Origin: a virus
Reading direction: 5' to 3' (one strand)
Length of the DNA: 35,354 bases
Virus genome (UHGV): UHGV-0125936
Shown here: positions 19,122-25,747 of the stretch, one piece after another
Position numbering within the stretch: position 1 is the first letter of the stretch
How the letters are laid out: every line of letters begins with the position of its first letter
Notes under the pieces: generated by a model
What the model saw: the letters and a program-made list of their open reading frames with translations, nothing else
The model's database searches: none
Told to the model about the DNA's origin: nothing
Program-made: the position numbers and the translations under genes

Positions 19122-20579
19122 CTATTTGTGTTTAAACCAGGCGCATTCTTTGCCAATACCATCAGTCTTAAAAACTGTGTGGATACGCGGGCCGGTGACA
19201 ATGCGATCGCCAAGCGATTTAGCAACAATGCCAAAAGCGATCATATCCCCCACCGCGGCGCCAGCCTGTTCTTTCTTCCAGAATCGATAACTTTCGATCC
19301 GGTAGTAAAGACGGATGATGCCGTGAGCGAACGCCATTACATCAGCGCGGGTGCCACCCAGCAGGCCAGCGTTAAGCATCACATCGCCGCGGTGCGCTTC
19401 AATGAATTCCTGATAGATACGCTCAGGATGATTCTGTTTCGCCCAGGTGTCGGCGTATGTCTTCGGTTCAGAACCGACGTAAACATTCCCGGGCTGCATT
19501 TCTTCCCACGGTGCGCGGAGCATTTCGACATCGGTACCATCAGTACACCAGACGAACCGGTATTCAGGGTGATCTCGCAGGTGCTGCCAGATATGCAGCC
19601 AGCGCCGGAAGTAGACATTCATCTTCACCTCAGGAACGCGGTACAACTCAACATCTGCCGGTGGCGTCTGCAGTTCATCCACCAGCGCGATACGTCCACA
19701 CTGCCGGAGTGATGCGGCCCATTTAGCCAGCATCTCAGGCGAGGCCGCCATTTTCGTACCGCGCTGCGGGTCAGGCTGGCTGGTGAGCAACGTTGTGATT
19801 ACCACGTCGCGCTGCTTCCGGTATTCAACGTAACCGGTAAAGCCGGTATCACGTCGTTCGTTGTGGATCTTCACGTTACGTTCCACCAGCGCCTGGCGGT
19901 CGGGCCTCGGCACTGAACGCTCTACGGCCTCATGCTCATCGAGAGAATGGATCAGCTTTTCTGAACCGACGACATCAGCGTACGCCCACGTAGTCAGTCC
20001 TGCGTTATGGATGCGCAAGGCGAGGTCGCTGTGCTCGTACATGCCGCGACCATAAACCGGATCGAATCCGCCTACCTTCTCGATGGCGCTGCGGTGGTAA
20101 TAAAGCATCACGCCGCGCTGCCCGGTGTACGCCACATGCTGATCGTCACGGTAAAGCACCGAAAGGTCATTCAGCTTGTTCGTGCCAGCAAGATCGAGAA
20201 ACTGGTAAGCCAGGTGCGGCTCTGGTGATTCGATGTAAGGGAGGTGCCAGTTATCAGCGATAGGCCAGGCGTCATCATCCCATAAAAACAGATGCTCACA
20301 CCCGGCATCCATCAGGGCTGTCAGGCTGGCGTTCTTCGACGCAACAATGCCGAGTGATGTTTCATGGCGAAGCAGCTGCACGCCGTGTGGAACTACCGCT
20401 GCAGGTTTTGAACCATCATCGACTACCACCACCAGCGCACCGGCGGGAAGATGCTTCATGTGCTGTTCGAGTGCTCGCTTTAAAACGTCTGCGCGCTGAT
20501 GCGTCGAAATGGCAATGCCGATCCGTGATGAAACGACGCTGGCGGGAGCGTATGGGACACCATCAATAGTGACCTGCAT
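19122..20579 (-). CDS. Two-domain glycosyltransferase (N-terminal family-2-like GT-A domain; C-terminal second transferase-like domain)
   Basis: VVVVDDGS and LWDDDAW (DXD) motifs in N-terminal half; C-terminal half has CTDGTDV and NAGLLGG; RBS GGGAGG. Confidence 0.6.
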   Translation of the reverse strand: MQVTIDGVPYAPASVVSSRIGIAISTHQRADVLKRALEQHMKHLPAGALVVVVDDGSKPAAVVPHGVQLLRHETSLGIVASKNASLTALMDAGCEHLFLWDDDAWPIADNWHLPYIESPEPHLAYQFLDLAGTNKLNDLSVLYRDDQHVAYTGQRGVMLYYHRSAIEKVGGFDPVYGRGMYEHSDLALRIHNAGLTTWAYADVVGSEKLIHSLDEHEAVERSVPRPDRQALVERNVKIHNERRDTGFTGYVEYRKQRDVVITTLLTSQPDPQRGTKMAASPEMLAKWAASLRQCGRIALVDELQTPPADVELYRVPEVKMNVYFRRWLHIWQHLRDHPEYRFVWCTDGTDVEMLRAPWEEMQPGNVYVGSEPKTYADTWAKQNHPERIYQEFIEAHRGDVMLNAGLLGGTRADVMAFAHGIIRLYYRIESYRFWKKEQAGAAVGDMIAFGIVAKSLGDRIVTGPRIHTVFKTDGIGKECAWFKHK

Positions 20580-20590
20580 AAAACCTCCCG

Positions 20591-21469
20591 TCAGATTCCT
20601 CGCGACCGTGTATTCCAGAGGATGCCGCCTGGCTTGAGCGCATTGCGAAGAGCATCGTTCACCGCTTCGTGCATCGCCTGTTGCAAGCCAACTACTGAAG
20701 CTGTTTGCGCATCAATCTTTGCCTGGAGGGCTGCGAACAAATCGCTTTCGCGTACGGCGGAGATAATGGCTTCGCACATCTCATCATTGAGGCTGGTTTT
20801 GGTGGCATTATTACCATCAGCGGGATTAGCCTTATCATGACTAATTGCTCCAGGGAAGCCACCAAAAGACAAACCAACATTGAATGTCGTCTTTTCATTA
20901 TTGCTGGCTGATTGAGCGGCTTCATGCACCTTATAGCGATCAGCCATAAACTCAACGTTGCTCTGGCCATCTTCAACTCCGATGGTCATGCCAGCTGCGT
21001 ACCGTTTGCCACCATAATCCACGTTCATCTTCACGCTGTAGTTCGTAGACAATGTGCCATTGCCGATCAGCGCCTCGTGGATGTAAGCCTTGCCGGTTTT
21101 ATCAACAAACCAGCCACCTTTAAGGCCATGAAGTGCGCAGCTGTTACGGATCTCTTCGTCCAGCGCCTCAATAATCTCTTCGGTATCGACAGAAGAAACC
21201 CCTTCGATCCAGTCACCGGCTCGCCAATCTCGTGCTGAGCCATCTTCTGCAATTGGACGCAGGCGCACCTGCAATCTCTCACCAGCTTTGAGGCCGGAAA
21301 TAAGGCATACGGTAGCTGGCCAGAAGATGCGTTTTTTCATAAGTCGGCCATCTTCATGAAGGCATTGCAGTTCTAGCACCGCGCAGCCACCCGGCCATTT
21401 CCATTCGACGTCCACACCAAAAGGTTTGGGAGTGGTTTTTACGTAAGGGACGATTGAAGGTTCTGACAT
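20591..21469 (-). CDS. FN3-like + J-fibre-motif protein (paralog of a distal segment of the tail-tip J protein)
   Basis: 293 aa from MSEPSIV (RBS AAGGAAAA); KRYAAGMTIGVEDGQSNVEFMADRYKV and IHEALIGNGTLS match J in this window (QYYAAGMGIGVEN...FLADRFAV; IRDALIGDGTIS); N-terminal beta-rich FN3-like region. Confidence 0.5.
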   Translation of the reverse strand: MSEPSIVPYVKTTPKPFGVDVEWKWPGGCAVLELQCLHEDGRLMKKRIFWPATVCLISGLKAGERLQVRLRPIAEDGSARDWRAGDWIEGVSSVDTEEIIEALDEEIRNSCALHGLKGGWFVDKTGKAYIHEALIGNGTLSTNYSVKMNVDYGGKRYAAGMTIGVEDGQSNVEFMADRYKVHEAAQSASNNEKTTFNVGLSFGGFPGAISHDKANPADGNNATKTSLNDEMCEAIISAVRESDLFAALQAKIDAQTASVVGLQQAMHEAVNDALRNALKPGGILWNTRSRGI

Positions 21470-21729
21470 TTTAATTTTCCTTTTAGACGTGAGCCTGTCG
21501 CACGGCAAAGCCGCCGAAAGTAATCGGTTTGCCCAGGCTCACAGCTGAAAGACTTTCTTTGATGTGCGCGTGCGATGCGCATAAATGCCGCGCTATGCGG
21601 TTACTGTCTGAATATCAGGGTATTACTTCGTTCTAACCCCGGGTAAGGTAAGCATTCAGCCCGTCAGTGGTGGGACACTGATTCACGCAAAGAGGAGGAA
21701 TGGCTGAATAACTCTTCGAAGGAAAAAGG

Positions 21730-22194
21730 ATGATCACCAAAGTAAAAATCAAGTTTATTTCCCCTATTGATGGATCGGTATCAGATACCCCCACGGAGCA
21801 TGCAATTCCCGTAGTTCCATTGACAGTATGGCCAAGTAGCTCAAAAGATATAAACGTTTATAAACCAAATGGATTGAAGGCTGGTGCCTACGCACTTATA
21901 GATACCGGAGCAGATATTTGCTATGTGGATTCAGACTTTGCTGACGATTTAAAACTCCCAATCGCGGAAAAAACAACTGTGAGCGGAGCCACCTCAACAA
22001 TAGAAACTACAGTTCGGCATGCGGTAATATCGTTCACTGAGGACGAAAGAGTTTTTTCAACAGAATTGACTTCAGTGCCATTGGTAAGTAACGGGAGAAA
22101 ATTCCAGGTCGTTTTCGGAATGCAACTAATTAAAATGGGCGCCCTTACGATGGATTTTTCCAATCAAGTATTTGAGTTAACATTTTTTAACTAA
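21730..22194 (+). CDS. Retropepsin-like (clan AA) aspartic protease, moron on opposite strand
   Basis: ALIDTGAD active-site motif and downstream VVFGMQLIKMGALTMDF flap-like motif; RBS AAGGA; AT-rich relative to flanks. Confidence 0.65.
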   Translation: MITKVKIKFISPIDGSVSDTPTEHAIPVVPLTVWPSSSKDINVYKPNGLKAGAYALIDTGADICYVDSDFADDLKLPIAEKTTVSGATSTIETTVRHAVISFTEDERVFSTELTSVPLVSNGRKFQVVFGMQLIKMGALTMDFSNQVFELTFFN

Positions 22195-22432: not shown

Positions 22433-22690
22433 CTAACAGTCGTCATCTGGACGTGCTACAGCTCGACATGCGGCCATGCATGCGCGCTTCATATCGAGCT
22501 CTGCCTGGCGTATCCACTCAACAGCTTCCCAGTCGTGAGGAGTGCGTTGTACATCACCTACATGCTCACGCAGCAACTTAATAAACTGGCGGCTGAGATC
22601 CTTAAACTGGTTCATCTTGCCGATTTCACCGTAAGAGAGTTCGCGGTAGCCCTTAACGGTGCTTCCGTCCTGTGGTTTAGCTTCGCTCAT
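22433..22690 (-). CDS. Hypothetical protein downstream of spanins
   Basis: 85 aa from MSEAKPQ; no recognisable motif. Confidence 0.35.
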   Translation of the reverse strand: MSEAKPQDGSTVKGYRELSYGEIGKMNQFKDLSRQFIKLLREHVGDVQRTPHDWEAVEWIRQAELDMKRACMAACRAVARPDDDC

Positions 22691-22756
22691 CGGATTCTCT
22701 ATTTTTGGTGGGTATGGAAACTTACCCGCGATTGAATGTGAACACAGCAGCATGCT

Positions 22757-23799: not shown

Positions 23800-24077
23800 T
23801 AGTGCCTCAGATGATCTACCAGACGTGCCAGATTTCCCCGGGCCCTCATAACGGCGGCGCAGATAAGGAGGTTTGCCACCACCACCAGCCAGCTGGAGTC
23901 ACGATAGAGACCGAAGATAAACTGCAACGGGATAACGGCATAAACCAGTACGGTTACATACGCCATGATAGAGATGAAAGGACGATGCCGGGCGCCATGT
24001 CGCTGGTAGAACATCAGAACGACAACAATTACCGCGCAGATAAATGCATTAAAGAATGCAGTCAGCTCACCTGCCAT
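23799..24077 (-). CDS. Holin-like membrane protein
   Basis: 92 aa with about 3 hydrophobic segments and basic C-terminus; immediately upstream of endolysin. Confidence 0.55.
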   Translation of the reverse strand: MAGELTAFFNAFICAVIVVVLMFYQRHGARHRPFISIMAYVTVLVYAVIPLQFIFGLYRDSSWLVVVANLLICAAVMRARGNLARLVDHLRH

Positions 24078-24456
24078 TTCCCCCTCCTCCGCGTAAACGC
24101 GAGAAAAAGCTGAACAGGCTGTTCAGATCCTGGTTATTAAGATAAGTTAGGATTTTGATACACAGGGCAGACAGAATCACTGCTCCGAGTGCATCCAACG
24201 GTTTTTCATATCGCGATGCGGCATTTAGCAGTGAGCCAACAAATCCAGCCCCAAGCACCCCAACGATAAACGACGTCAGAAAATACCCAGCCAGTCGTGC
24301 ACGAGACAGGTTCGTTGCTGTTGCGACGTAGAACACCGCACCACCAAACGCCCCAAACACCACACCGAAATCTGTATGAGTAAAGACGCCGTACAGGACT
24401 GAACCCAGCAGGCCGCCGCCGAGAACTGCGCCGGTGCCGGTTAATGGATCGGACAT
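24067..24456 (-). CDS. Putative holin / lysis-associated multi-pass membrane protein
   Basis: 129 aa from MSDPLTG (RBS AAGAGGGGG), Gly-rich TM segments; ORF-track start 24507 would lie inside a terminator hairpin. Confidence 0.45.
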   Translation of the reverse strand: MSDPLTGTGAVLGGGLLGSVLYGVFTHTDFGVVFGAFGGAVFYVATATNLSRARLAGYFLTSFIVGVLGAGFVGSLLNAASRYEKPLDALGAVILSALCIKILTYLNNQDLNSLFSFFSRLRGGGGNGR

Positions 24457-24502
24457 TTTGCCCCCTCTTATTGCTGTTGATCCTCTCAGAAGGTTGAGGG
24501 GA

Positions 24503-24530
24503 AACAAAAAAGGCCACCGTGAGGTGGCCT
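24503..24530 (-). terminator. Rho-independent terminator downstream of small moron gene
   Basis: 8-bp perfect stem aggccacc/ggtggcct, loop gtga, then U-run on - strand. Confidence 0.55.
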
Positions 24531-24566
24531 ATATATGATTGAAATTTTTGATTTGGTAAGGCTTGA

Positions 24567-24761
24567 TCAGACCGGCAATGCCTTCGGCTTGCCCATGTGA
24601 TATGTAACAAGGCTGCTTTTGCTGCCATCTTCCCAGACTGTAGAGCTCTCGGTGATCATCAAAATCACCCAGCCTTTAGAAAGGCCCAAATTGACTTGCT
24701 CCACATCCTCTACCGTCCGTACTTCCTGAATTTTACTCAACAAGTTTTCATCTGCGCTCAT
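24567..24761 (-). CDS. Hypothetical small protein (moron between tR' and lysis genes)
   Basis: 64 aa from MSADENLL; AT-rich; bracketed by two terminators. Confidence 0.4.
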   Translation of the reverse strand: MSADENLLSKIQEVRTVEDVEQVNLGLSKGWVILMITESSTVWEDGSKSSLVTYHMGKPKALPV

Positions 24762-24823
24762 CAACTGACCCTCAGTTAAAAAACACAACATAACAAACGC
24801 AATGAAGAAAAACCTTGCTGGAA

Positions 24824-24848
24824 ATAAAAAAACCCGCAACGTGGCGGG
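24824..24848 (-). terminator. tR'-like terminator downstream of pR'
   Basis: Stem cccgc/gcggg with 6-nt loop followed by 7-U tract on - strand, about 45-70 nt downstream of candidate pR'. Confidence 0.55.
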
Positions 24849-24892
24849 CTTTTAGAGGTTAATTATCTACAGGCGTTATACTCCATAATCAG

Positions 24893-24922
24893 AAGCATAC
24901 AGGACAGTTTTATGCAAAGTCA
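24893..24922 (-). promoter_or_regulatory. Candidate late promoter pR' (-35 TTGACT, 18-nt spacer, -10 TATGCT) with qut-type region
   Basis: Hexamers read on - strand immediately downstream of Q stop. Confidence 0.4.
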
Positions 24923-24964
24923 ACACTAACGTGCAAAAAAGTGTCGCCATTTGCTCCGATCATA

Positions 24965-25747
24965 TTAATAAGTTGTCGCCTTCTCAAACTCTACTGCCGC
25001 GTGACGCTCCCCCTGGCGCAGCGTGTCCACCAGCATTTCATAAAAGGGTTTCCAGTTGCGTGACCATGAGGACTGATGGAGGTCCGGGAGACGCTTCAGA
25101 ATGGCACGGTGTACCGTCGCCGAGGAGATTGCAGAGAAGCCATTACCAGAGCAACGTTCACACGTTTTGAAAACCGGTGCGCCGCGGTCTTTAGTCGCTT
25201 TGCGGTCCAACACTTCTCCTTTACCGCCACACCTGCACCGGGCAAGGATCACTTTCTTTCCTCCGCATGTTTCGCAAACTCTTTTCACCAGCTCATTTTT
25301 AATCTTTGGGGCCACTACTTCGGCACCGTCGGCGTCGAAAATACCAGGATGTTTAACCACATCCTCATTCCCGGAGATAAACCCGGTACCGCTGCAACTG
25401 TGGCATGTCACGCTGGTAGCCGCCGAACGGGAGTAATCAGCAAAGGCAAATTGCGCCAACATCTGCATGCACCATCCAAAATGCCCACCAGCTGCTTTGC
25501 GAACATTCTTTGGTGCCGTTTCCATCGCGTAACGAGCCAGCGCCTGAACTGCGAGCTGTTCATCTGTTTTGCTGATGCCGGCCTTGCCAAAGAAAGCAGC
25601 CAGGCCGAAGCGCGCACGGCTGCTGGTGGTGCCAATCGCCGCCATTACATCTGTTCCTGTAAGGCGGTCCGGAGAAGTTCCCTTCACGTCATCGCTGATG
25701 TGCATTCCCTGAGGACTAAAATGTTTGAGTGACGCTTCCAGTTTCAT
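24965..25747 (-). CDS. Q: Late antiterminator Q (phage 82/933W-like Q family)
   Basis: LTGTDVMAAIG, LAQFAFADYSRSAAT, multiple CxxCxGxG zinc-finger motifs, SWSRNWKPFYEMLV, matching recalled Q-family pattern; position between replication and lysis. Confidence 0.7.
   Translation of the reverse strand: MKLEASLKHFSPQGMHISDDVKGTSPDRLTGTDVMAAIGTTSSRARFGLAAFFGKAGISKTDEQLAVQALARYAMETAPKNVRKAAGGHFGWCMQMLAQFAFADYSRSAATSVTCHSCSGTGFISGNEDVVKHPGIFDADGAEVVAPKIKNELVKRVCETCGGKKVILARCRCGGKGEVLDRKATKDRGAPVFKTCERCSGNGFSAISSATVHRAILKRLPDLHQSSWSRNWKPFYEMLVDTLRQGERHAAVEFEKATTY

Follow-up and report, generated by a model that had tools for sequence, protein, structure and literature searches.

The window analyzed here is the virus genome UHGV-0125936, a stretch of 35,354 nucleotides read on one strand. 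It represents a temperate HK97/lambda-like phage with a CI-like repressor, an integrase, DnaB- and DnaC-like replication genes and HK97-type late genes, and its nearest records are two members of the Hendrixvirinae, Escherichia phage Fraca and Aeromonas phage AsXd-1. Our subject is the interval between the gene for the late antiterminator Q and the lysis genes, where a prediction made from the nucleotide sequence (hereafter the original prediction) had placed a late promoter, pR', an early terminator, tR', and a small accessory gene bracketed by terminators. In the GenBank records that we examined, this region is annotated with hypothetical proteins only. From 5' to 3' on the minus strand, the order is Q, pR', tR', an open reading frame of 64 codons (ORF64), a second terminator (t2), a late leader and the lysis genes. 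The elements predicted between 24503 and 24922 are all present; the upper limit needs correction, as it falls one base short of the −35 hexamer, which begins at 24923. The features are as follows.

24965-25747, minus strand: Q antiterminator gene, 260 amino acids (aa), matching PF03589, phrog_127 and PDB 7ubm.
24918-24923, minus strand: −35 hexamer of pR', TTGACT, from a consensus scan and its invariance in relatives.
24905-24917, minus strand: 13-bp motif TTGCATAAAACTG in the promoter spacer, resembling the Q-binding element (QBE) of lambda and a putative site of Q binding.
24894-24899, minus strand: −10 hexamer of pR', TATGCT, from a consensus scan and its conservation.
24883-24890, minus strand: candidate sigma-dependent pause element, GATTAT followed by GG, from conservation and the register shared with lambda.
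24874-24877, minus strand: predicted pause site, AACG (element positions 14-17), from conservation and equivalence to lambda T14 N15 Y16 G17.
24822-24853, minus strand: intrinsic terminator tR', stem AAAAGCCCGC-cacgtt-GCGGGTTTTT with a T-rich stretch, from scan, fold and retention in relatives.
24787-24795, minus strand: candidate extended −10 of ORF64, TGtTATGTT, from the motif and its recurrence in homologues.
24567-24761, minus strand: ORF64, a 64-aa acidic cytoplasmic protein, from its GAGGG Shine-Dalgarno sequence, homologues and the ratio of nonsynonymous to synonymous substitution rates (dN/dS).
24503-24530, minus strand: intrinsic terminator t2, with an 8-bp stem, a 4-nt loop and six T residues, from scan and fold.
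24067-24502, minus strand: late leader including TCTGAGAGGA and the first holin gene (Phage_holin_8), from PF16931 and the shared leader motif.

The product of the gene upstream of the promoter matches PF03589 with an E-value of 2.9e-52 and phrog_127 with an E-value of 5e-102, and phmmer aligns residues 1-122 and 169-245, as separate blocks, to the lambda Q structure (PDB 7ubm) with an E-value of 5e-35. PF03589 is the family of lambda Q (PMC9388147), and judged by these matches the gene is a lambda-family Q. Like lambda Q, it combines an N-terminal segment that engages RNA polymerase, marked in both proteins by GTDVMAA.G, with a zinc ribbon and a C-terminal helix-turn-helix; it differs from lambda Q in a zinc-ribbon arm enlarged by about 50 residues, which contribute two further Cys pairs. 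Altogether four Cys pairs lie between residues ~115 and 203 (C115/C118, C158/C161, C171/C173, C196/C199), compared to two in lambda Q, and this Q also has a weak match to DnaJ_CXXCXGXG (E=7e-4). The DNA-contacting arm appears to have expanded into a two-zinc, DnaJ-like finger, and its insertion differs from one Q variant to another.

Directly after Q and facing the lysis genes lies a promoter-like site (24923-24894) in which, as had been predicted, TTGACT and TATGCT are separated by an 18-nt spacer. The two hexamers match the sigma-70 consensus at 9 of 12 positions. We compared it across 112 loci that have pR' downstream of a related Q gene and comprise 61 distinct sequences. In these the −35 pattern TTGA.T is conserved in all cases, as are A2 and T6 of the −10 hexamer. 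A2 and T6, together with the invariant −35 bases, are the positions most important for sigma-70, and the sigma-contacting bases of the proposed promoter are accordingly invariant throughout the 112 loci. The set includes a second variant of the locus, in which Q is 64-78% identical and the promoter reads TTGATT-TTGTCCGAAGTTGTCGTG-TATGCT. Here the spacer and the sequence upstream of the −35 hexamer have been replaced and the hexamer itself is TTGATT instead of TTGACT, with the 18-nt spacing and TATGCT kept. Due to the usual distance of 6-8 nt from the −10 hexamer, the transcription start is predicted at about 24887 (24888-24886). The 41 nt from the Q stop codon to the −35 hexamer (24924-24964, minus strand) are near-invariant in loci of the first variant, beyond what is seen at the synonymous sites of Q. 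They contain ATGGCGACA, which aligns without gaps to lambda ATGGCAACA and is equally far from the Q-site motif, and this block could be an UP-like element or just reflect shared ancestry.

The promoter spacer contains the window's TTGCATAAAACTG, which is identical to lambda TTGAATAAAATTG in 11 of 13 positions and whose distance to the pause element equals that in lambda. Positions kept in lambda and in both promoter variants are T1, T2, G3, A8, A9, T12 and G13. Lambda Q is a monomer on its asymmetric 13-bp site, where it contacts positions 1-4 and 11-13 (PMC9388147), and the conserved TTG (1-3) and TG (12-13) fit these contacts. Motif positions 4-7 and 10-11, in contrast, differ between the two variants, and these differences go along with changes in the C-terminal helix-turn-helix region of Q: residues 1-110 of variant-1 and variant-2 Q are near-identical, and the differences lie in the arm and in the helix-turn-helix region. 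Taken with the replaced spacer, this indicates that the DNA-binding specificity of Q and the spacer motif shift together, and it is consistent with binding of Q at 24905-24917. We considered a pair of Q protomers on a direct repeat, given a 10-bp spacing of TTG..TG, and rejected it, as lambda Q is monomeric and a direct repeat applies to Q21 (PMC9388147).

A second −10-like hexamer, GATTAT, begins 3 nt after the −10 of pR' and is followed by GG. Over the 61 distinct sequences this element has the pattern NATNNT, with A2 and T6 conserved in 100%, T3 in 98%, G7 in 87% and G8 in 98%, and with positions 1, 4 and 5 free to vary. Ten bases further along, the same sequences have a pyrimidine at position 16 (Y16, 100%) and a guanine at position 17 (G17, 92%). 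In lambda, the sigma-dependent pause is specified by AACGAT-GGG, with pausing at T14 N15 Y16 G17 and a TNYG consensus (PMC9191641). When the two loci are aligned on the 13-bp motif, the pause element and C-G site of the window fall into the same columns as AACGAT-GGG...TTCG of lambda, and this ungapped alignment, with 44 of 105 identities, is the best of 81 offsets. A locus with a distant Q (L116) has the classical lambda layout, in which TAGGAT is followed after 6 nt by AACGATGGG and then by a terminator. We also asked whether the second −10-like hexamer could belong to a separate promoter and rejected this, since there is no −35 hexamer at a spacing of 16-18 nt.

The intrinsic terminator that had been predicted 45-70 nt downstream of the promoter was found about 62 nt past the predicted start. 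Its stem spans 24853-24828 and its T-run 24832-24826, with a centroid fold of −13.6 kcal/mol. A hairpin with a T-run recurs 51-65 nt past the predicted start in 111 of the 112 loci. The stretch between the pause site and tR' varies among relatives. The stems fall into at least four classes with compensatory changes (CCCGC/GCGGG, CCCGT/ACGGG, CCCTGCC/GGCGGGG, CCCTGCC/GGCAGGG, GCCCCGCCA/TGGTGGGGC). Together, pR' and tR' are predicted to yield a short RNA that starts at 24887, ends at 24826 and is about 62 nt long. Neither this RNA nor the window matched any Rfam family at the gathering score. A permissive Rfam search of 24400-25050 gave sub-threshold matches only, of at most 27 bits (isrK, Trp and Leu leaders, RyhB and others), which we rejected as terminator-driven.

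The second strong terminator foreseen at 24503-24530 is likewise present. It reads AGGCCACC-tcac-GGTGGCCT followed by T6 (24530-24503) and is stronger than tR', with a centroid fold of −15.5 kcal/mol that none of 200 shuffled sequences reached (z=−4.4). In a motif scan, t2 followed ORF64 in 15 of 16 ORF64 loci. In the sixteenth (L020) its 3' arm is GGTGGCG instead of GGTGGCC, so that the scan missed it, although the sequence itself shows it. The leader motif TCTGAGAGGA is common to 34 loci, and t2 together with this leader is also seen in 29 loci without ORF64, ten of which have it directly in tandem with tR'. We conclude from its presence in these 29 loci that t2 is a part of the lysis-gene leader and not private to ORF64. 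Between t2 and the start of the holin gene (24457-24510, minus strand), the leader forms the block GTTTCCCCTC..TCTGAGAGGA..AAGAGGGGG, which is found in 34 related loci with differing lysis cassettes. Its CCCCTC is complementary to the Shine-Dalgarno sequence of the holin gene, and a search for an anti-Shine-Dalgarno structure in the holin leader gave a fold no better than those of shuffled sequences (z=−0.9). The lysis cassette that follows reaches to 22757 and encodes holins of the Phage_holin_8 and the three-transmembrane-helix type, a GH19 endolysin and an Rz-like spanin (PF16931, PF05449, GH19).

Homology among relatives stops at the T-run of tR', and beyond it the cargo is variable. The window and Fraca have ORF64 in this place, CharmingMan an HNH endonuclease and TerB, and LMessi, Fostie and a prophage of E. 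coli UMNK88 have TerB and a TciB-like gene; AsXd-1 carries other open reading frames, and in some loci tR' and t2 stand in tandem and the slot is empty. The variable cargo and the presence of t2 without ORF64 point to a general design of pR', tR', cargo slot, t2, leader and holin. As seen from the comparison of these loci, tR' and t2 enclose a recombination slot whose cargo changes from phage to phage. At the right-hand junction, t2 keeps its 3' arm, GGTGGCCT, in all of them, whereas its 5' arm varies with the cargo, being AGGCCACC in the window (24511-24530), and AGGTCACC and AGGCTGCC in the loci compared with it (L004/L032 and L116). Together with the left junction at the T-run of tR', the constant 3' and variable 5' arm suggest that cassettes were swapped by recombination inside the terminator hairpins.

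ORF64 (24761-24567) starts with ATG and has the Shine-Dalgarno sequence GAGGG 7 nt upstream. Of 106 Q loci, 12 (~11%) contain it, 11 of these directly after tR'. Its homologues, with 75-98% identity, are found in Enterobacter and Citrobacter prophages, where they again follow a lambda-type Q gene and precede three different lysis cassettes. Between variants of 78% identity, dS is 0.79 and dN 0.10. The resulting dN/dS of 0.13 shows that ORF64 is a real gene under purifying selection, and the small open reading frame is conserved, a point on which its prediction had been made to depend. In L116, a more distant homologue with 42% identity comes third among the cargo genes that follow another lambda-type Q. 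It has terminators on both sides, the downstream one being similar to t2; one still more distant is located among genes of mobile elements (RadC, resolvase, integrase).

The profile HMM search that had been proposed for the 64-aa protein returned 11 matches only among 1.84 billion representative proteins. ORF64 drew no match in Pfam (with E-values up to 10), in PHROGs, in NCBIfam or in PADLOC. An AlphaFold2 model of moderate confidence (predicted local distance difference test, pLDDT, 74.7) consists of helices at residues 3-8 and 20-24 and strands at 11-16, 32-42 and 48-57, and a fold search with this model found no significant structural neighbor. Lambda has an 'orf-64' too (L008, J02459, 44621-44815), which lies at the equivalent position between Q and S and overlaps the 6S RNA/tR' region. 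We considered it as a relative of ORF64 and rejected it, since the sequences are unrelated and the shared length of 64 codons is coincidental. The description of ORF64 as AT-rich holds only weakly: its GC content is 47.5%, compared to 51.6% for the window, 54% for Q and 52-56% for its neighbors, a small gap for a gene of 195 nt.

Upstream of ORF64, 25 nt before its ATG, we find TGtTATGTT, which resembles an extended −10 element and reads TGcTATGTT in the variants of 75-78% identity. The 42%-identical homologue of L116 has TGaTATCAT 26 nt before its ATG, in a leader otherwise unrelated to that of ORF64. The motif TGNTATNNT has only eight occurrences on both strands of the window. TGtTATGTT is not accompanied by a −35 hexamer, and its predicted start falls within a T-run. 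The recurrence of the motif suggests that an extended −10 may serve ORF64 as a promoter of its own.

Lambda is among the closest known systems. In both phages a Q of the same family is followed directly by a promoter with the −35 hexamer TTGACT, a 13-bp motif in the spacer, a −10-like element with GG, a C-G dinucleotide at element positions 16-17 in the same register, and an intrinsic terminator ahead of the lysis genes. We are therefore confident, short of certainty, that the region is the late-gene control region of a lambda-like (Hendrixvirinae-type) temperate phage, built as a pR'-tR' Q-antitermination unit with a cargo slot. The proposed parallel to the 6S RNA and Q-antitermination layout of lambda is supported by the Q family, the promoter and the register of the elements. 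It does not extend to the RNA itself: the 6S RNA of lambda has 194 nt, and the predicted RNA of about 62 nt is not homologous to it.

Several observations weigh against this reading or set the locus apart from lambda. Our consensus scans found 2 promoter-like sites in place of 4.8 expected from shuffled sequences, and 9 terminator-like sites in place of 6.9, which is no excess over chance. As the scans by themselves are not enriched, the case rests on the comparison with related sequences. The lambda frame is only modestly ahead of the runner-up offset (44 versus 41 identities), and the comparison of putative binding sites starts from the lambda motif, with the QBE known to be 13 bp long and contacted at 1-4 and 11-13 (PMC9388147). 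The core stem of tR' holds only five G-C pairs. Position 14 of the pause site is A in the window, where the consensus has T, and the −35-like TTGACT that directly precedes the pause element in lambda has no counterpart here. The geometry differs as well: the spacer has 18 nt instead of 17, the −35 hexamer is nearer to the Q-site motif by 2 bp, and the −10 hexamer is further from it by 3 bp. As a consequence of the 3-nt gap between the −10 hexamer and the pause element, compared to 6 nt in lambda, the element would lie across the predicted start, from about −3 to +3, with a pause expected near +12/+13, not at +16/+17 as in lambda. We found no documented precedent for a pause element that overlaps the start site. 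Finally, the second terminator downstream and the extra residues of Q are features in which this locus departs from lambda.

In phages that carry Shiga toxin genes (Stx phages), pR' and tR' are 258 nt apart, their transcript is processed to the 74-nt Hfq-binding RNA StxS, and the stx genes lie between tR' and the lysis genes (PMC7547250). In its predicted architecture the window matches them: a late promoter that is constitutive and soon met by a terminator is followed by a cargo gene, which would be dispensable for phage growth and gated by Q, and then by the lysis cassette. Its pR'-tR' distance, however, is only about 62 nt and its cargo encodes a 64-aa protein in place of a toxin. The analogy drawn by the original prediction is therefore one of position: we detected no sequence homology to the pR'-tR' region of Stx phages, and the cargo is no toxin. 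Since Stx phages carry tRNAs at the equivalent position, we ran a tRNA scan, which found none.

A moron by definition requires a promoter of its own; the concept goes back to Juhala and colleagues, in 2000, and to lambdoid phages of the HK97/HK022 type. Like the morons of those phages, ORF64 is a small gene with a patchy distribution in collinear relatives, inserted between conserved modules, followed by a terminator and possibly equipped with its own promoter. It differs from them in that this promoter is only a candidate, in that its GC content departs only slightly from its surroundings, and in that the terminators on either side are common to the late leader and were not brought along with the gene. 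The prediction of a terminator-bracketed moron is largely supported, by the bracketing, the patchy presence and the selection, with the qualifications that t2 is not specific to ORF64 and that an own promoter is only suggested.

Two other explanations of the upstream half of the locus need to be weighed against a late promoter at 24923-24894. One places the true late promoter over the stop codon of Q, at 24987-24959, and regards TTGACT/TATGCT as incidental. This site (TTGAGA, 17 nt, TATGAT) is the better match to the consensus, with 10 instead of 9 of 12 positions and an optimal spacer, and it occurs in most close relatives. Yet it is missing in the second variant, where the sequence upstream of the −35 hexamer is unrelated; several close relatives have G for the essential A of the −10 (TGTGAT), or else TAGGAT, and CharmingMan has TCGAGA as the −35. 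Moreover, its −35 falls inside coding sequence, and neither a −10-like pause element nor a QBE-like motif follows it in register. Given its absence in variant 2 and the disabling changes in close relatives, we rejected this site on conservation, and it is most improbable that it is the late promoter. The other explanation dispenses with a promoter altogether: tR' would end the early or replication-Q operon, perhaps in both directions, the block after Q would be the 3' untranslated region of the Q gene, and the hairpins would mainly serve other purposes. It is true that tR', bordered by an A-run on its 5' side and a T-run on its 3' side, could act bidirectionally and that, at about 110 nt after the Q stop codon, it would also halt unmodified polymerase reading through from upstream. 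Such a role in ending upstream transcripts is, however, compatible with a tR' and not an alternative to it, and the explanation accounts neither for the invariance of exactly those −35 and −10 bases that contact sigma, nor for a tandem −10-like element and C-G site in the lambda register, nor for the co-variation of the spacer with the DNA-binding region of Q. We give it very little credence.

The question of how ORF64 is expressed is far more evenly balanced. It could be a plain first gene of the late operon, transcribed only by Q-modified polymerase from pR', with TGnTATGTT being fortuitous or part of a translational leader. The position of ORF64 downstream of tR', in the orientation of the late operon and in most contexts directly after a lambda-type Q, fits this explanation, as do the lack of a −35 hexamer, the predicted start in the T-run, and the conservation of the entire 45-nt leader of ORF64, which does not single out the motif. 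On the other hand, the extended −10 recurs 25-26 nt from the ATG in the 42%-identical homologue, whose leader is otherwise unrelated and which again has terminators on both sides, the motif is rare on the two strands of the window, and polymorphism for the presence of the gene is typical of morons. We put the chances of a plain late gene a little below even. Less probable, and in our view rather doubtful, is an autonomous moron, transcribed in the lysogen from its own extended −10 promoter and with a host-directed role such as lysogenic conversion or anti-defense; to the same tentative grade belong the related proposals that the constitutive pR' RNA of about 62 nt is a StxS-like regulatory small RNA and that Q loads on an unusually early paused complex, at about +13, owing to the overlap of the pause element with the start site. 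Were ORF64 such a moron, it would be the founder of a very small protein family, insulated by tR' and t2. As a best guess, its product is an accessory protein that is made late, and perhaps in the lysogen too.

Under the antitermination model that we prefer, the locus would operate as follows. Without Q, sigma-70 polymerase would initiate at pR' and its transcript would stop about 62 nt on at tR', with t2 forming a second block ahead of the lysis genes. Once Q has accumulated, it would bind the 13-bp motif in the spacer and load onto polymerase held at a sigma-dependent pause, which is probably set by GATTAT-GG and the C-G pause site 10-11 nt beyond. The modified polymerase would then pass tR' and t2 and proceed through ORF64, the two holins, the endolysin, the spanins and the structural genes. 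Expression of ORF64 would take place late at the least, and possibly in the lysogen as well, from its candidate extended −10.

Further candidate accessory genes are found downstream of the lysis cassette. Right after the Rz spanin, an open reading frame of 106 aa (22433-22753, minus strand) matches the Acb2/Tad1 hairpin domain PF24729 with an E-value of 2.1e-10 and also phrog_717; it may be a nucleotide-sponge-like anti-CBASS/anti-Thoeris gene of the late operon. On the strand opposite to all its neighbors, a frame of 154 aa (21730-22194, plus strand) encodes a retropepsin-like aspartyl protease (PF13650, E=6.9e-6) with a DTGA motif, and has a weak PADLOC match to PDC-M08B (E=0.015). This frame, too, has the look of an inserted accessory gene. 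The stretch from the lysis region to the terminase (19122-21508, minus strand) encodes a glycosyltransferase of 485 aa (phrog_1579, 'moron/host takeover', E=3e-252), which may act in O-antigen modification, and a protein of 305 aa (phrog_13555). The gene for the former also follows the lysis cassette in two Citrobacter loci (L112, L115).

The locus is a well-supported but ordinary case of a textbook system and leaves current understanding unchallenged. Within this frame, the analysis provides an evidence-based annotation of late regulation for a large group of temperate phages of Enterobacter, Citrobacter and Escherichia. It defines a two-terminator slot for the swapping of accessory genes and flags ORF64 as a conserved, selected and uncharacterized protein. 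For studies of Q antitermination it offers natural variation, in the form of two Q/QBE specificity variants that share the same polymerase-engaging N-terminus, and a compact geometry of interest, with the pause element 3 bp nearer to the promoter than in lambda.

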